Source: Candidatus Poribacteria bacterium
GTDB lineage: Bacteria; Poribacteria; WGA-4E; PCPOR2b
Direction of reading: 5' to 3'
Assembly: GCA_965205075.1 (NCBI GenBank)
Contig: OZ242036.1
Location: 6,285,354-6,349,353, forward strand
DNA: 64,000 nucleotides
Part shown: in pieces, positions 11,264 through 17,500 of the stretch
Layout: the number at the start of each line of letters is the position of its first letter
How positions within the stretch are numbered: the first letter of the stretch is position 1
The notes under the pieces: model-generated
Database searches by the model: none
The model's input: the letters and a program-made list of their open reading frames with translations, nothing else
Told to the model about the DNA's origin: nothing
Program-made: the position numbers and the translations under genes

Positions 11264-12511
11264 ATGAAAGATAGAAAGCTAACCTCAATGAAAACTACAT
11301 TTGAATATCGGGCATATCCGACTGCTAAACAACGAAAGACCTTTACCGCTTGGTTTGCGTTGCTCCGGATGCTTTACAACCAAGCCCTTGCATGGCGTAA
11401 AGATGTCTACCAATCCACCGGTGAATCGGTCAAGTGGGCGACCCAAGGGAACGCTTTACCTGACCTCAAACAAGAGTCCCCCGCGTTTGCCGGTCTCCAC
11501 GCTGATGTGCTGCAAGACTGCTTACGGCGTTTGGATAAAGCATACCGAGCATTCTTTCGTCGTATCAAAATGGGCGATGAACCGGGCTTCCCGCGCTTCA
11601 AAAGCGAAGGGCGGTATCGGTCGATGACCTTTAGCCACTTGTCTGTGAATCTAATACGGCATATCCGTCGCAAGTTTGCCCGCGTGGTTGTCCCCAAAGT
11701 TGGACACCTCAAGATTCGGTATCACCGACCGCTGCCCGATGGTAAAATTAAGAATCTGACCATCAGCCGTAAAGCGTCGGGCTGGTATGTAACTATCTGC
11801 GTTGAAGTCCCCGCCCCCGTGAAAGTCCCTGTTGAAACGACCATCGGCGTGGATGTTGGGCTTAATGCCTTTGTCGTCGATTCCGATGGTCAACGGATTC
11901 CAAATCCACGCTACTATCGCAAATCTGAAAAGATGCTTGGCAAACATCAACGGATACTCTCTCGATGCAAGAAAGGCAGTAACCGCAGAAAGAAACAGCG
12001 TCAAGTTGTCGCCCGATGCCATGAACACATAGCGAATCAGCGCAAGGATTTTCAGTTTAAGACGGTGCATCGCATTCTTCTTCGTTGCGATGAGGTTGCC
12101 GTTGAGAATCTGACCATCACGAATATGTTGAAAAACCATTACCTTGCCAAGAGTATATCTGATGCGGGTTGGGGCAGTTTTCGCTTGAAACTGCAAAGCA
12201 AGGCTGAAAGTGCCGGTAAGCAGTTCACGAAGGTTAAGCCCCACTACACAAGCCAGAAATGTTCAAGTTGCGAGGCGATAGTTCCCAAACTCTTGTCTGT
12301 CCGTGTCCATGACTGCCCGCATTGCGGGTTGGTACTGGACAGAGACCATAACGCTGCAATCAATATCAAAAAGGCTGCTGTAGCCTTGCGTGGAGGTGCG
12401 GTGGTAACCAACACCCCCGAAACTCTTGAAAGAGAAAGAAGCGCAGAACCTTGTAAGACCCGTGGGGGAGGCAATTATAACAAGCCGCCTCCTTTAGGGC
12501 GGGGTAACTGA
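11264..12511 (+). CDS. tnpB: RNA-guided endonuclease TnpB
   Basis: HTH (FEYRAYPT), GFPRFKS, RuvC I VDVGL, RuvC II VENL, Zn finger CSSC/CPHC, RuvC III DRDHNAAINI. Confidence 0.95.
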   Translation: MKDRKLTSMKTTFEYRAYPTAKQRKTFTAWFALLRMLYNQALAWRKDVYQSTGESVKWATQGNALPDLKQESPAFAGLHADVLQDCLRRLDKAYRAFFRRIKMGDEPGFPRFKSEGRYRSMTFSHLSVNLIRHIRRKFARVVVPKVGHLKIRYHRPLPDGKIKNLTISRKASGWYVTICVEVPAPVKVPVETTIGVDVGLNAFVVDSDGQRIPNPRYYRKSEKMLGKHQRILSRCKKGSNRRKKQRQVVARCHEHIANQRKDFQFKTVHRILLRCDEVAVENLTITNMLKNHYLAKSISDAGWGSFRLKLQSKAESAGKQFTKVKPHYTSQKCSSCEAIVPKLLSVRVHDCPHCGLVLDRDHNAAINIKKAAVALRGGAVVTNTPETLERERSAEPCKTRGGGNYNKPPPLGRGN

Positions 12512-12745: not shown

Positions 12746-13003
12746 ATGACCTACGTCATCACTGAACCTTGCATCGATGTTAAGGATACTGCCTGTGTTG
12801 ATGTTTGCCCTGTTGACTGCATTCATCCAACCTCAGACTCAGACGAATTTGAGAATCACAACCAGCTTTATATTGACCCTATAGAGTGCATTGACTGCGG
12901 TGTATGCGAGCCGGAATGTCCGGTCGAAGCGATTTTCATAGATGAAGATGTCCCCGAAGAATGGGAGCACTTCACCCAGTTAAACGCTGACTATTTCCAA
13001 TAA
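12746..13003 (+). CDS. fdxA: 7Fe ([3Fe-4S][4Fe-4S]) ferredoxin, copy 1
   Basis: [17 protein letters not shown] and [16 protein letters not shown]; AGGAGG RBS. Confidence 0.93.
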   Translation: MTYVITEPCIDVKDTACVDVCPVDCIHPTSDSDEFENHNQLYIDPIECIDCGVCEPECPVEAIFIDEDVPEEWEHFTQLNADYFQ

Positions 13004-13021
13004 TAACGCGCTATAAAACCT

Positions 13022-13080
13022 AAAACGGGCAGCGACTTGGGAGGGATCCAAATGCCAAACCCTAATCGCTGCCCGTTTTT
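13022..13080 (+). terminator. Long hairpin / probable intrinsic terminator
   Basis: 14-bp stem AAAACGGGCAGCGA / TCGCTGCCCGTTTT ending in a T-tract. Confidence 0.6.
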
Positions 13081-13236
13081 GCGATACCATAAATAGTGTA
13101 ATAGTCCGGGGGCTGGTTGACGCTATAGATTCATAGGTGAAATAGGCACTTATGCTATTTCAATAACAATTATTGATTGGTTCTCCACAGTCATCTTAAT
13201 ATCGTAATTTTTTAATGAAACAGGAGGATAAAACCG

Positions 13237-13494
13237 ATGACCTACGTCATCACTGAACCCTGTATTGATGTTAAGGATACTGCTTGTGTTGATGTTTGCC
13301 CCGTTGACTGTATTCACCCAACCTCAGACTCAGATGACTTTGAAAATCAGAATCAGCTTTTTATTGATCCTGCGGAGTGTATTGACTGCAATGTGTGTGA
13401 ACCGGAATGTCCGGTCGAGGCAATTTTCATAGATGATGAAGTTCCGGAAGAATGGGAACATTTCATCCAGCTAAACGCTGACTATTTCCAATAA
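13237..13494 (+). CDS. fdxA: 7Fe ferredoxin, copy 2
   Basis: Near-identical paralogue (CIDCNVC); same RBS context. Confidence 0.93.
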
Positions 13495-13562
13495 TGATGG
13501 TTTAATCTATGCTGAACCGAGTCATATGACTTTTCAAACAGGTTCTTAAAGAAAGAAATGTT

Positions 13563-14015
13563 TTGAAGGAAGATTATCTTTTACAGGTCAGAATAACAGG
13601 TATACTCATTGAAGATGATAAAATATTAATCGTCAAACAAACAATATCTCCTGAGCGGACTTGGAGTCTTCCCGGGGGAAGAGTACAACAGGGTGAAATG
13701 CTAGAGGAAGCGATAATCAGAGAAATGAGAGAGGAAACAGGATTGGAGACAAGCGTTACAAAACTCCTCTATGTCTGTGATTATCCTGAAGTGGAACCCC
13801 CTGTACTCCACATCTCCTTTTTGCTGAATAGAATTGGTGGTGAGGTGCGTCTGCCTTCAAATGAGTTCGATGAAAACCCCATTTTTGATGTAAAGATGGT
13901 GCCGATAGATGACCTGCCATCTTATGATTTTTCAGATAAATTCAAAGACTTTGTTCAAAAAGGATTTCCAGACGCTGGTAGTTATAAAGGTCATAAAAGG
14001 TGCATTGGCTTGTAA
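13563..14015 (+). CDS. NUDIX hydrolase
   Basis: Nudix box GGRVQQGEMLEEAIIREMREETGL. Confidence 0.9.
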   Translation: MKEDYLLQVRITGILIEDDKILIVKQTISPERTWSLPGGRVQQGEMLEEAIIREMREETGLETSVTKLLYVCDYPEVEPPVLHISFLLNRIGGEVRLPSNEFDENPIFDVKMVPIDDLPSYDFSDKFKDFVQKGFPDAGSYKGHKRCIGL

Positions 14016-14129
14016 AAGGTGCCGAGTTGAGTTTGCGAGAATGCAAGTTAAGTCGTAAGCCGAAAAGTCTCAACCTTTAGGTGTCTACCACCACGCGAAC
14101 CACGACAGATATCGCAGAATAGCCTGTAA

Positions 14130-14453
14130 ATGATGCCTCAGCCAACTCAGATTCAACGCCTTCCGGACGCAATTAGTGTTCAATGGAGCGATGGACACCA
14201 AAGCGAGTATTCCCATCAACTGCTGCGTCAAAAGTGCCCATGTGCACGGTGCCAATCAGAAAAGTCAGATAAAAACCCGCTACGCCTGTTACCCACCGAT
14301 CCGTTATCCAAAAACCTTACACTTGTTGATATACAGCGTGTTGGTCGTTACGCGATTCGATTGATCTGGGCTGACGGACACAAGACAGGCATCTATACAT
14401 TTGAGTTTCTTCACTCTATTCAACCGGATTCGACGGAAACTACGCCCGATTAA
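14130..14453 (+). CDS. DUF971 / GBBH N-terminal-like protein
   Basis: WSDGH, LRQKCPCARC, VGRYA...WADGH.TGIY. Confidence 0.85.
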   Translation: MMPQPTQIQRLPDAISVQWSDGHQSEYSHQLLRQKCPCARCQSEKSDKNPLRLLPTDPLSKNLTLVDIQRVGRYAIRLIWADGHKTGIYTFEFLHSIQPDSTETTPD

Positions 14454-14531
14454 CAAACTACTTCGACCAACTGCCTCTCTCGCCCCTTTTCCTGGTGGAT
14501 GGTTTGTTGACCCTTTCCAATAGCACTTTGA

Positions 14532-15569
14532 TTATTCAACCTGCCCTTCCGGTGAAAACACCTTAAAATCGCAGATGGCGTGCCGAAAAACGACGATTTT
14601 TGATTCGTTTTCTAAAATCATCTTAATCTCGTAGCTACTCACCCAATCCACCAATCCACGAAAAGCTTCTCCTTCTAGCATTGTGACTTGGATCATGTGC
14701 CGAGCCCGTCGCGCTTGAACAATAGCTCGCGTATTGATGCTATAGCGTTTTTTTCGTTGTATTATGGGCTTTAGGTTCTGTTCCTTAATTTCCCCGTTAT
14801 AGCGGAGAATCGACTGTATATCCGCAGCATCCTCCGCTTTGTAACAGTATTTGACATCGGTTTTCGGTAGTTCTTGTCTTTCTGTTTCGCCCCCGATAGA
14901 ATCGATTCCGTTCCGATCCCGTTCCGAGGACCCCGATGAATCGGAGGAATCCCGATTTATCGGGAGATTCGGAGCAACTTGTAAAACGAAGTCGTATTTG
15001 GTGAACCCAGTAACCGTCGCAGATAGCAGTGTATGATTATACAATCCAAAAAACATGGGCGTTTGAAGACGTATCTGCTTCTGTATGTAGAGATCGCCAA
15101 AGGTTGGCTGTTCATCAGGTGAGGAGGCTGGTTCTGGTTTGGGAGTGTGCAGATGAGAAGATTTCCGATCTGGGGAACTATCAATCAATTCAGACGTTGC
15201 TGTTTTAACTCTTGGAGTGGAGAAAGCAGCGGGCGTGGGGCGGATAGGACTTTCAGATGAAGCAAACGCCCCCTCCTCAGAATTATCTCTTGACTGCTGA
15301 GGTGGGGCATAGTCGCGAGGTATCACTGCCTTACCTTGTCTCAATCGCTTCTGTTCAAGCGGGGTAAGCAGGACCTTCACATTCTGGGCGACGGGACCTC
15401 TATCGCCTACAGCTACCTCGTATCTAACATACTGCCCTACCTGGATTTCGTCGTATCCATCCTGAATCGCAGAGATATGCAGAAAAACATCTCCTTCACC
15501 GGTGTCTTGAGCGATGAATCCATACCCTTTGTCTGAGTTATAATATTTGACTCGTCCCGTTGGCATCAT
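14532..15569 (-). CDS. Cold-shock domain protein fused to two Hfq/Sm-like domains
   Basis: CSD with RNP1 KGYGFI and RNP2 VFLHIS; S/P-rich linker; C-terminal VTMLEGEAFRG...KIVVFRHAI resembles Hfq; a second, degenerate Sm-like copy precedes it. Confidence 0.75.
   Translation of the reverse strand: MMPTGRVKYYNSDKGYGFIAQDTGEGDVFLHISAIQDGYDEIQVGQYVRYEVAVGDRGPVAQNVKVLLTPLEQKRLRQGKAVIPRDYAPPQQSRDNSEEGAFASSESPIRPTPAAFSTPRVKTATSELIDSSPDRKSSHLHTPKPEPASSPDEQPTFGDLYIQKQIRLQTPMFFGLYNHTLLSATVTGFTKYDFVLQVAPNLPINRDSSDSSGSSERDRNGIDSIGGETERQELPKTDVKYCYKAEDAADIQSILRYNGEIKEQNLKPIIQRKKRYSINTRAIVQARRARHMIQVTMLEGEAFRGLVDWVSSYEIKMILENESKIVVFRHAICDFKVFSPEGQVE
14890..14981 (-). repeat. In-frame palindromic micro-element (expanded copy) inside CSD-Hfq gene
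   Basis: Shares ends CARGTTGCTCCGAAT...ATCGGGGG with copies in mfd and lptD; contains nested CCGATnnATCGG palindromes. Confidence 0.6.
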
Positions 15570-15614
15570 TTTCTCTCCATTGGGTTAAAGATTTCCGACT
15601 GGAATGCGGACGAT

Positions 15615-16436
15615 TTAGTAATAGCACGGAAGATCTCGACCTTGAATTGGGTCAACATATTTTGCCAAGTCACGCAGGGAGATAACAGTGCAGTCGTTGT
15701 GGTAAAGATAATCCATGTAGGTTTCAAATGTTTCGGGGTCTGTATTGACCCAAGGGTGCTCCAAGGCAGGCACACCGTGGAACGTCAAGACAGCAATCTG
15801 TCCATCTCTCGCCCCCTCAACTGCCCACACCAAGTCGTCAAACCCCCAGTGTGGTCCCGAAGCCCCGGTCGTTGGGATGAGCAGCGGATGATGTTTCGCC
15901 GGGTTGTATGCGGGACCTCGTCCTCCTTCTGAATCGTAGGTAAACTCCGGTGCAATGCCGCGTCGTGCAAAGAGGAATCCTTTCTCAATTAGGACTTTCA
16001 CTGCCTCAGGTCCGTTAGAATACCCCGGATAGCAGAATGTCTCAGGTACGGGGATACCGTGTTCCTTGCAACGTAGATCAATGTGTTGTAGATCGGCAAG
16101 TAACTCTTCGCTCGATTGGTTGTTCACGTTTTTGTGATGGCGCGTGTGGTTGCCAATTTCAAAACCGGCTTCGTGCAGTTGCTTAACCTCTTTCCATGTT
16201 ACATAGTGCGCTTTGTTTTTGAGAAAATTGAGCCCCTCAGTGATGAAAAAGGTGCCACCGAAGCCGTAACGCTTGAGTAAGGGTGCTACATAGGTGGCAT
16301 CCGACTTGTTGCCGTCATCGAAGGTCAAGACAACCAACCGATCGGGGATGGGTTGGAGATTTTGAGAGGTAAATATATTCCTGTTATTATCATAAACACC
16401 TGATTCGCTCATCGGTTCCCTTTCCTGTTGACTCAT
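15615..16436 (-). CDS. Polysaccharide deacetylase (CE4/NodB) family
   Basis: LTFDDG, EIGNHTRHH, FCYPG, LTFHG. Confidence 0.9.
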   Translation of the reverse strand: MSQQEREPMSESGVYDNNRNIFTSQNLQPIPDRLVVLTFDDGNKSDATYVAPLLKRYGFGGTFFITEGLNFLKNKAHYVTWKEVKQLHEAGFEIGNHTRHHKNVNNQSSEELLADLQHIDLRCKEHGIPVPETFCYPGYSNGPEAVKVLIEKGFLFARRGIAPEFTYDSEGGRGPAYNPAKHHPLLIPTTGASGPHWGFDDLVWAVEGARDGQIAVLTFHGVPALEHPWVNTDPETFETYMDYLYHNDCTVISLRDLAKYVDPIQGRDLPCYY

Positions 16437-17500
16437 TAGCTAGTTTCCAAGAACTCCCAGAGTTTATCAAATTGCGACCCTGTAATAGGTTGATGGCGCA
16501 AGATGGTATTGGTATCCTTTCGCTCCATGTAGCTCGGCGCAAACTCCAATCCTACACGAAGTTCCTCGCGGCTTATTCCTACCTCCCTTGGTCGGCGGCG
16601 CACTTTGCATCGATCTAGCCGATTCGTCAGAATTTCGGGCTGCTCGTCACATTGCCAAGCGATGATGATTGCGCTGAATGCAACCATCTCTCCATGGATG
16701 TAGCTTGTGTTATGCTTTTCTTCTAGGGCGAGCCAGAAATCGTGATCTCCGCTTGCAGCCTCCGGTCGTTGAATCCAACGAGAATCGCGCTCCTGCACAC
16801 TTTTCATGATGTGTCGTGCGCTTTTTCCTGTCAGGTTTCCCTGTGCATCAAGGCTTGCTTCAAAGCCGTGCGTAATCTCTTCATGGTGACTGAGGACATC
16901 AGCAATTACTGCTTCGTCGCAAGGCGGACCTATACCGTTTTTGGCACGCCAACGCCATTCCGCGGGTGCTGCATACCCACATAGTATATCGCCGAGACCA
17001 GCGGTATTCAGGTAATAGGGTGCTTCGAGAATCAGGTCGTCGTCCGCTAGAATATGATCGCAGTCCACCCAGGGCCAATCGTCGAGTGCTCCAACGATTT
17101 TTCTTCCTTCCCATTTCGCCACAACCCCATGGATGATCGCTCCCGTTGATACGATCGTTGGCACCATGACGAGTGGTAGATCTTTGTCTAACGCTACGAA
17201 CTTTGAGACATCTAGTGCCCGTCCGCCGCCCAGTCCAACTACCAACTCCGCATCATCAGGCAAACTCTCGCTTATCTCTTTTTGATGTCTGGAATCCAAC
17301 CACATTGCATGGGCTACCCCTGCGGGCGGTTTGGATAGATGGGATTGCGCTGTTTTGTATGCAGTCGGTGTGGACACCATTAAGTAGCGTGGCCACCCGG
17401 CACTCTCCTTTTTCAGCAGACCTGAACCGTAGCGAATGTCATATTCCGCTGCCGGTTTCATCTGACTTGCATGGGACCAACCGCGTCCTGCTTTATTCAT
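16436..17500 (-). CDS. Glycerol-1-phosphate dehydrogenase / GldA-like dehydrogenase (divergent)
   Basis: GLGGGRALDVSK, VPTIVS, AGLGD, SGDH, HGEMVA. Confidence 0.7.
   Translation of the reverse strand: MNKAGRGWSHASQMKPAAEYDIRYGSGLLKKESAGWPRYLMVSTPTAYKTAQSHLSKPPAGVAHAMWLDSRHQKEISESLPDDAELVVGLGGGRALDVSKFVALDKDLPLVMVPTIVSTGAIIHGVVAKWEGRKIVGALDDWPWVDCDHILADDDLILEAPYYLNTAGLGDILCGYAAPAEWRWRAKNGIGPPCDEAVIADVLSHHEEITHGFEASLDAQGNLTGKSARHIMKSVQERDSRWIQRPEAASGDHDFWLALEEKHNTSYIHGEMVAFSAIIIAWQCDEQPEILTNRLDRCKVRRRPREVGISREELRVGLEFAPSYMERKDTNTILRHQPITGSQFDKLWEFLETS

Follow-up and report, generated by a model that had tools for sequence, protein, structure and literature searches.

A cold-shock domain joined to a predicted tandem of Hfq-like Sm barrels: a putative RNA chaperone architecture of Poribacteria

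Introduction

Hfq and the cold-shock proteins are the two textbook RNA chaperones of bacteria and are known as separate small proteins. This report concerns a gene of Candidatus Poribacteria, mostly uncultivated, sponge-associated and marine bacteria, whose product joins a cold-shock domain (CSD) through a linker to two barrels of predicted Hfq-type Sm fold. The gene, called CSD-Hfq here, lies at 14532..15569 on the minus strand of a 64,000-nucleotide (nt) stretch of contig OZ242036.1, referred to throughout as the window, and protein numbering follows its 345-amino acid (aa) product.

The RNA-binding surfaces of Hfq provide the reference for such a comparison. In the passages of PMC4152361 that deal with them, F42 gives the proximal pocket its base-stacking platform, H57 touches the backbone and the 3'-hydroxyl, and uridine is read by Q8 and K56 together with Q41 of the neighbouring protomer, the helix-1 residue Gln8 reading the uridine in the adjacent pocket. 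The rim patch consists of R16, R17, R19 and K47, the distal adenine site is Y25, and each pocket of the ring is formed by two adjacent barrels (PMC4152361). Fusions of Sm proteins have also been described: the 'augmented' Sm proteins treated in passages of PMC3710371 are Hfq proteins fused to zinc fingers, encoded on archaeal plasmids, and Pyrobaculum SmAP3, which carries a C-terminal domain. Like the protein described here, they hold a Sm/Hfq module and a second nucleic-acid-related domain in one polypeptide, but each has a single Sm domain, its partner being either a C2H2 zinc finger or an alpha/beta domain of a novel kind; these passages name no CSD as a partner and no tandem of Sm domains within a chain (PMC3710371). 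The sequence-only reading from which this analysis started had stated that it knew of no such fusion among characterised proteins, and the full-text literature searched, which covers few subscription journals, described neither a CSD fused to Hfq nor two Hfq domains in tandem within a chain. An early Hfq survey reportedly noted a duplicated Hfq in an alphaproteobacterium, and the tandem alone may have been seen previously.

The CSD-Hfq protein resembles bacterial Hfq (PF17209; TIGR02383) in that both of its C-terminal units are predicted to have an N-terminal helix and five bent strands, and in that unit 2 matches Hfq profiles and keeps the equivalents of G29, G34, F42, K56, H57 and R16. Unlike homohexameric Hfq, it has two predicted barrels per chain, an N-terminal CSD and scores below the cut-offs, with Q8 and Y25 replaced in unit 2 and His57 apparently lost in unit 1. 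Because it departs from Hfq in curated score, Gln8, single-domain size and the His57 of unit 1, it was not filed as Hfq; it is a new domain architecture of known folds, Hfq-like by fold and in unit 2 also by sequence. With the CspA/CspE/CspD family (PF00313) it shares a 68-bit CSD with invariant RNP1/RNP2 positions and a predicted five-stranded barrel, whereas single-domain cold-shock proteins (~70 aa) lack its 280-aa extension, and its equivalog scores lie far below cut-off. The two-barrel module is shared with CSD-less tandem Hfq-like proteins, among them a 218-aa paralogue in the same genome, which has a basic N-terminal tail in place of the CSD.

Results

Domain architecture of the CSD-Hfq protein

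The architecture of a CSD, a linker and two Hfq-like barrels is very probably correct. The gene and its parts, all on the minus strand of the window, were placed as follows.

14532..15569, minus strand: CSD-linker-tandem Hfq-like coding sequence, 345 aa plus stop, ATG start (open reading frame (ORF) list and translation)
15573..15578, minus strand: Shine-Dalgarno-like GGAGAG, read from the sequence, with a spacing of 3 nt to the first ATG and of 6 nt to the second
15372..15560, minus strand: cold-shock domain, aa 4-66 (PF00313 match and modelled five-stranded barrel)
15309..15371, minus strand: conserved post-CSD segment, aa 67-87 (modelled helix at 70-77, then a basic Q-G-K-x-x-I-P-R motif; no Pfam match)
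15114..15308, minus strand: variable low-complexity linker, aa 88-152, Pro/Ser/Gln-rich, predicted disordered
14829..15113, minus strand: unit 1, aa 153-247, predicted divergent Hfq-like Sm fold (AlphaFold2 model and VIA-align)
14886..14975, minus strand: in-frame insertion of ~30 aa in the beta3-beta4 loop of unit 1, ~aa 199-228, a copy of a dispersed short palindromic repeat
14736..14828, minus strand: helical connector between the barrels, aa 248-278 (31 aa), conserved, with modelled helices at 245-254 and 259-263
14544..14735, minus strand: unit 2, aa 279-342, predicted Hfq-type Sm fold (profile match and model), with the Sm1 glycines and the F-R-H-A-I form of Sm2 kept

In the family alignment, the second Met (MPTGR) is the start in most homologues.

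PF00313 matched aa 4-66 with 68.1 bits against a Pfam cut-off of 27 (E 5.9e-19). The full-length AlphaFold2 model (64-row alignment; predicted local distance difference test (pLDDT) 79.6, predicted template modelling score (pTM) 0.57) placed the five strands of the CSD at 4-11, 16-21, 28-31, 47-55 and 58-66, with pLDDT mostly above 90. The nucleic-acid-binding positions K14, F18, I19, F29 and H31, which we take to be those of the RNP1 and RNP2 motifs, were each conserved in 64/64 sequences of the family alignment, and the canonical CSD that the sequence-only reading had seen at aa 1-67 was thereby borne out. The NCBIfam CspE/CspD/CspA equivalog models scored far under their cut-offs (at best 68.6 against 120 and 67.2 against 115.4 bits). 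Judged by these profiles, the 345-aa protein contains a true CSD yet is not a CspA-type equivalog.

Nothing in the Pfam or NCBIfam libraries matched aa 67-280. Within the post-CSD segment, L68, T69, E72, Q78, G79, K80, I83, P84 and R85 showed no variation among 28 sequences and were conserved to 90% or more among 64, and a local hidden Markov model (HMM) found the segment in 4 of 13 distant CSD-bearing clusters. Its helix and basic motif may represent a docking peptide. The linker that follows was modelled with low confidence (block-mean pLDDT 42-52 over about aa 88-150, most of 88-132 below 50, full-length model), and its sequence and length differed from member to member of the family. A disordered linker of ~85 aa had been proposed from the sequence; the low confidence over aa 88-150 agrees with this, but aa 67-87 are conserved, and aa 70-77 are predicted to be helical.

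Predicted structure of the tandem module

Modelled alone (196 residues, 59-row AlphaFold2 alignment), the C-terminal module reached pLDDT 85.3 and pTM 0.79 and consisted of two alpha+5-beta units. The register proposed for them, with unit 1 at aa 153-247 and unit 2 at aa 279-342, each of one helix and five strands, was reproduced. Because a pTM of 0.79 was obtained despite ~25 very-low-confidence residues among the 196, the model suggests that the two barrels are held in a fixed mutual orientation; the connector helices had pLDDT 87-95.

Every Foldseek match listed for the module against the PDB was an Hfq (best 1kq2_H, E 5.6e-4; target-normalised TM-score 0.66-0.89). A Foldseek-independent scan of 48,161 representative chains placed Hfq at ranks 1-7, followed by other Sm, LSm, YaeO, WYL and RimP barrels, and no solved chain of that set aligned across both barrels, the longest alignment covering 81 residues. 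With VIA-align, unit 1 (model residues 4-98) and unit 2 (model residues 130-193) each superposed separately on whole Hfq chains, unit 1 with Z 6.5-7.1 and a root-mean-square deviation (rmsd) of 1.2-2.4 Å over 60-68 residues and unit 2 with Z 6.3-6.6; these values are near 7, and a Z below 8 can reflect a mere common arrangement. For unit 1 and unit 2 alike, an Hfq-type Sm fold is predicted at high confidence. An Sm fold had been assigned to them from the letters, and in the comparisons of the predicted structure Hfq ranked first, with Foldseek and without it.

One near-invariant cysteine was observed in beta5 of each unit, C242 (62/64; window ~14844-14846) and C333 (60/64; 14571-14573). The alignment with E. 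coli Hfq contained no comparable cysteine pair at these positions. If the two lay near each other, a disulfide, a metal site or a redox switch would be conceivable.

Unit 2 as a diverged Hfq homologue

The profile of unit 2 (57 sequences, A5) detected the Hfq of M. jannaschii (E 2.4e-6) and that of Caulobacter (E 0.0066), and its comparison with E. coli Hfq by hhalign gave 71% (E 3.7e-5). Pfam models were sub-threshold on aa 281-334 (PF17209 20.3 bits and PF21979 19.5 bits, cut-off 27 each), and the NCBIfam Hfq models scored 17.7-21 bits against cut-offs of 52-95 (TIGR02383 21 against 61.7; NF047718 19.3 against 52), in unit 2 only. From these profile comparisons, unit 2 is classed as a diverged Hfq homologue.

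Alignment to E. coli Hfq gave the following correspondences, with counts over 64 family sequences.

Hfq G29, unit 2 position 300: G in 64/64
Hfq G34, unit 2 position 305: G in 64/64
Hfq F42, unit 2 position 313: Y in 53 and F in 7 of 64
Hfq K56, unit 2 position 329: R in 57/64
Hfq H57, unit 2 position 330: H in 63/64
Hfq R16, unit 2 position 287: R in 60/64
Hfq Q8, unit 2 position 279: D in 32, N in 23 and Q in 1 of 64
Hfq Y25, unit 2 position 296: T in 42, I in 11 and V in 7 of 64

The proximal and rim determinants of unit 2 are largely kept, and its distal adenine site is probably not.

Unit 1 and its relation to Hfq

Searched against PDB sequences, the unit 1 profile (60 sequences) found no Hfq, its only match being a cupin at E 0.12, and hhalign gave a probability of 0.12% against E. 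coli Hfq. Since a sequence match to Hfq was lacking, the Hfq-like assignment of unit 1 rests on predicted structure, in which a helix at 157-167 precedes strands at 171-176, 180-189, 193-198, 231-235 and 239-244, with pLDDT 94-97 apart from the loop insertion. The sequence-only reading had described the two units as related; compared profile to profile, they gave hhalign probabilities of 0.1% and 0.4%, and neither an internal repeat nor any other relationship was detectable by sequence.

Links through other proteins were found. The unit 1 HMM matched the distant relatives P0217 at 247-298 (E 4.5e-5) and P0169 at 91-138 (E 4.7e-4), and these are the segments matched by Pfam Hfq and Hfq_1. Unit 1 of the CSD-less paralogue aligned weakly with unit 2 of the CSD-Hfq protein (E 0.024). 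Most probably, unit 1 arose as a duplicate of unit 2, older and further diverged.

The residue register of unit 1 was inferred solely from secondary structure and aligned ranges. In this register, the P-K-T-D-V loop (aa 235-239) occupies the position of Y-K-H-A-I in Hfq, as had been proposed from the translation, K236 is present in 63/64 sequences, and the equivalent of Gln8 is G in 62/64. Strand beta5 (K240, Y241, C242, Y243, K244) is nearly invariant.

The insertion in the beta3-beta4 loop, which fills the gap that the sequence-only reading had left in unit 1, was modelled with pLDDT of about 48-59 and was confined to the closest relatives, occurring with varying length in 9 of 69 distinct unit-1 sequences (cut from 76/80 loci). 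It corresponds to a GC-rich palindromic repeat, and window positions 14895-14975 had at least 16 other genomic matches (40 of 187 first-look candidates scored), one of which, at G000:C1:4597119-4597183, was 91% identical over 65 nt. The repeat folds as a hairpin (-32.5 kcal/mol, z -1.5). In metatranscriptome contigs of runs X1 and X3, 18 extra bases lay behind 14961, and unrelated metatranscriptome contigs matched window 14912-14952 only. The loop that hosts the insertion is tolerant of an in-frame repeat.

Distribution of the family in Poribacteria

Of 394 candidate proteins collected with aa 150-345 as the query, 149 matched at E <= 1e-3. Among the matches listed, 119/120 carried a precomputed CSD and 16/120 a precomputed Hfq or Hfq_1, and the named family members were 'Candidatus Poribacteria' proteins labelled hypothetical or cold-shock. 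As public databases name the family only 'cold shock domain-containing' or 'hypothetical', its Hfq part escapes surveys of Hfq distribution. Local HMMs gave the order CSD, post-CSD segment, unit 1, unit 2 in 119/121 family proteins, with unit 1 split by an insertion in 9. On one-genome-per-species contigs, 131 loci were confirmed, and 80 were kept and used for the synteny and unit-1 counts; 76/80 were titled Poribacteria and 4/80 'uncultured bacterium'.

An even sample of the phylum gave a profile match (E <= 1e-5) in 149/151 Poribacteria genomes, including 131/131 high-quality ones. Among the genomes listed, 125/151 had one match spanning the profile from position 1 or 2 to 319 or beyond, and these genomes all belong to families f1-f3; in families f4-f7 the match came in two pieces or covered the tandem part only, and in families f8-f9, of another class, matches were weak only and possibly to the CSD alone. 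The CSD-Hfq gene is real and conserved across the main Poribacteria lineages and is not a chance ORF or a mis-joined gene.

PF17209 exceeded its cut-off in 47/151 genomes of the same sample, nearly always in frames of 155-300 aa or of >750 aa. Frames of canonical size (80-104 aa) were found, among the rows listed, in G002, G004, G069 and G074 only. In genomes such as G005 and G012 the fusion was the sole profile match, and there was no PF17209 match at E <= 0.01.

RNA chaperones of the host genome

The host genome is a single contig of 6.66 Mb with 99.95% completeness. It was checked for a standalone hfq, a point left over from the sequence-only reading, and none was found above cut-off with either PF17209 or the cyanobacterial Hfq-related model NF047718. 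The two best PF17209 hits, both sub-threshold, were the CSD-Hfq gene itself and the CSD-less paralogue. Profile scans of the genome gave no CsrA and no ProQ match, and two ordinary standalone CSD genes (72- and 78-aa frames) were present. The paralogue was located as follows.

G000:C1:5728139-5728792 (locus L016 1510..2166), plus strand: CSD-less paralogue (218 aa), in which a basic N-terminal tail precedes a two-barrel module of the same kind

It shares 26% identity with the CSD-Hfq protein over both units and 47% with P0148, a member of whose cluster is called 'sRNA-binding regulator protein Hfq' by one source. The CSD-less and CSD forms could make mixed assemblies.

A wider family of two-barrel proteins

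An exhaustive profile-free search with aa 150-345 gave 166 representative clusters at E <= 1e-3, 48 of them at <= 1e-10, with lengths of 48-1142 aa and most aligned to query residues 77-190. Outside the Poribacteria set there were 148 clusters, of which 146 matched the unit 2 HMM, 63 the unit 1 HMM, 61 both and 13 the CSD. A Pfam scan of 66 distant relatives found a CSD in 11, a C-terminal helix-turn-helix (HTH) domain, HTH_3, in 5, and HEAT repeats, ParB_N, DnaJ_C and GmrSD_N in one each; 12/66 exceeded the cut-off of a Pfam Hfq-type model. The two-barrel Hfq-like module is a broader, largely unannotated family, in which the CSD fusion is one recurrent architecture.

Unusual partner domains were noted in the distant relatives P0127, P0130, P0131, P0134, P0194, P0267 and P0248. 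In some distant relatives the Hfq-like module is joined to C-terminal XRE-type HTH domains; in one relative of 1142 aa it follows a GmrSD_N restriction-endonuclease domain, and another of 577 aa has several Hfq, LSm and S1-like stretches in series. From these arrangements, the module may also have functions other than RNA chaperoning.

Neighbouring genes, signals and expression

The CSD-Hfq gene is flanked by the following features.

14130-14453, plus strand: DUF971 (GBBH-like_N) gene, tail-to-tail with the CSD-Hfq gene, kept in 70/80 related loci
12746-13003 and 13237-13494, plus strand: two near-identical 85-aa ferredoxin-like ORFs in tandem, with a homologue in 53/80 loci
11264-12511, plus strand: 415-aa ORF that reads as a TnpB/OrfB-type transposon-associated protein, judged from its translation only

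The TnpB/OrfB-like ORF was found by tblastn in 7/80 related loci and is taken as a local insertion. Upstream, the polysaccharide deacetylase and iron alcohol dehydrogenase (Fe-ADH)-like genes were kept in 15/80 loci; a NUDIX gene was found in 1/80. Because these genes are retained in so few related loci, no operon or functional partner is proposed; there is synteny around the gene, without an evident functional partner.

An Rfam scan of 13000-17500 (E <= 1) gave no cspA-type leader or other element, the single match being a chance one to a miRNA family at E 0.71. Over 14300-16000, three promoter-like sites (1.7 +/- 1.3 in shuffles) and two terminator-like sites (1.4 +/- 1.4 in shuffles) were detected, none of either kind positioned for the CSD-Hfq gene. 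An Atlas lead with a score of 0.90 to a FljA-type repressor (PF03614, Flag1_repress) was rejected: the PF03614 scan of the genome was blank at the locus, with its best match elsewhere at E 0.91, and PF03614 was absent from the Pfam scan of the 345-aa protein at E <= 1.

Five metatranscriptome runs from two studies contained 32-43% of the sampled words. Three of them yielded one contig each, of 2.8-3.4 kb, covering all of 14400-15700 with 39-45 differences (~96-97% identity) at depths of 15-53; the contigs show neither strand nor transcript ends. A sponge metatranscriptome run, X6, had few words and short pieces at 90-95% identity and was not used. These data point weakly to expression of a close relative of the CSD-Hfq gene.

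Discussion

We consider that the CSD-Hfq protein is a putative Hfq-type RNA chaperone with a tethered RNA-melting domain, with a rough probability of 0.6. This putative RNA-binding protein would consist of three modules: the N-terminal CSD, a flexible linker ~65 residues long and, at the C-terminus, two Hfq-type Sm barrels in rigid tandem. Unit 2 retains most of the proximal-pocket and rim residues of Hfq, and unit 1 would be a strongly diverged copy with an invariant surface of its own. U-rich or 3'-end single strands of RNA would be retained on the Sm module, and the tethered CSD would bind the adjacent RNA and keep it unfolded, giving more local melting where RNAs are matched. RNA binding, chaperone activity, cooperation of the modules and the trimeric ring considered below are what we infer. 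Because it is conserved across Poribacteria and the genome has no ordinary hfq, the protein is probably one of the main RNA chaperones of this phylum.

Several findings weigh against such a role. By the profile scans, the protein falls under every curated Hfq cut-off. In the alignment of unit 2, Q8 is replaced (D or N in 55/64), as is the distal-site Y25 (T, I or V in 60/64); unit 1 matches neither Hfq nor unit 2 by sequence in the comparisons made, and in its inferred register the position of His57 is T237 (T 52/64, H 2/64). The structural Z of ~7 falls in the range in which a match may mean only a common arrangement of the predicted elements, although the aligned regions span entire Hfq chains, the N-terminal helix included. 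Distant relatives join the same module to HTH_3, ParB_N and GmrSD_N, which are DNA-directed contexts. The metatranscriptome contigs, lastly, cross convergent genes and could derive from carried-over DNA.

Characterised Hfq and Sm proteins oligomerise via their beta4 and beta5 edges, and the ring idea is founded on this pairing. The most economical assembly would be one of three chains, forming a six-barrel ring in which unit 1 and unit 2 pockets alternate and to which three CSDs are tethered; we regard this geometry as tentative, its chances being somewhat short of even. A pseudo-hexameric Sm ring of three chains with three tethered RNA-melting domains had already been put forward in the sequence-only reading. 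As each pocket is formed by two adjacent barrels, alternating units would give two hybrid kinds of pocket. A bolder version, which we find doubtful, is that in the main Poribacteria lineages the Hfq homohexamer was replaced by covalently duplicated chains, three of which would close an asymmetric ring with alternating re-specialised and conserved pockets where the CSD would melt RNA.

The strongest competitor accepts the domains and gives up the trimeric ring: the protein could be a monomeric or dimeric two-barrel RNA-binder in the manner of tandem Tudor or OB barrels, a stacked or open oligomer, or part of a mixed ring with the paralogue. A two-barrel chain would leave one free edge per side under beta4/beta5 pairing, and tandem-domain chains such as the BMC-T shell proteins and PCNA form pseudo-hexamers of three chains, which argues for closure. 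Pulling the other way, the connector of ~31 aa is conserved and confidently modelled, so that a fixed two-barrel body need not have ring geometry, and several ring-pocket residues are lost from unit 1. The host genome also encodes a paralogue with the same module, and monomeric tandem small barrels are common (bioRxiv 10.1101/140376). On balance we hold this alternative to be unlikely, yet the likeliest of the three considered.

It is considerably less probable that the barrels serve mainly to sense DNA or small ligands, in place of chaperoning RNA, in the manner of the WYL-type Sm-like domains or of nucleoid-associated Hfq, and that the protein is a transcription or nucleoid factor. The HTH_3 domains at the C-terminus of 5/66 scanned distant relatives, with ParB_N and GmrSD_N in one each, speak for it, as does the presence of WYL regulators (DriD, PafBC, BrxR, CapW) among the fold matches (Z 4.5-5.5); single-stranded DNA is a further ligand of CSDs. 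Hfq nevertheless ranked above WYL for both units (Z 6.3-7.1 against 4.5-5.5), unit 2 matches Hfq by sequence, no WYL family appeared in the Pfam scan at E <= 1, and the CSD-Hfq protein itself has no HTH. Housekeeping also fits better than defence, given one full-length match in 125/151 genomes and a conserved neighbour in 70/80 loci. Least probable of all, if by a small step, is that unit 1 is an unrelated small beta-barrel or a modelling artefact, leaving a CSD, one Hfq-like domain and an accessory domain: the missing sequence signal against PDB chains, E. coli Hfq and unit 2, the Z near 7 and the de novo SH3-like barrels also listed at Z 5.1-5.7 would allow for it, but the unit 1 model covers whole Hfq chains with their N-terminal helix (60-65 of 60-65 residues, rmsd 1.2-2.4 Å) at pLDDT 94-97 outside the insertion, its homologous segment in distant relatives is matched by Pfam Hfq or Hfq_1, and unit 1 of the paralogue weakly cross-matches unit 2.

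The reading we prefer, in which an Hfq-type chaperone carries an RNA-melting domain on a tether, would place both textbook chaperone folds in one chain, with Hfq duplicated, across a candidate phylum. Heteromeric rings are a hallmark of the eukaryotic Sm and LSm proteins; the bolder version with its alternating ring, if true, would show how bacteria can arrive at a heteromeric Sm ring, and it would bring together the two classic chaperone folds of bacterial RNA in a natural fusion for the first time. Should the trimeric ring hold, it would provide a natural test of how far an Sm ring tolerates specialised subunits, a tethered system in which to ask how RNA melting and matching cooperate, and an entry point to small-RNA regulation in Poribacteria.

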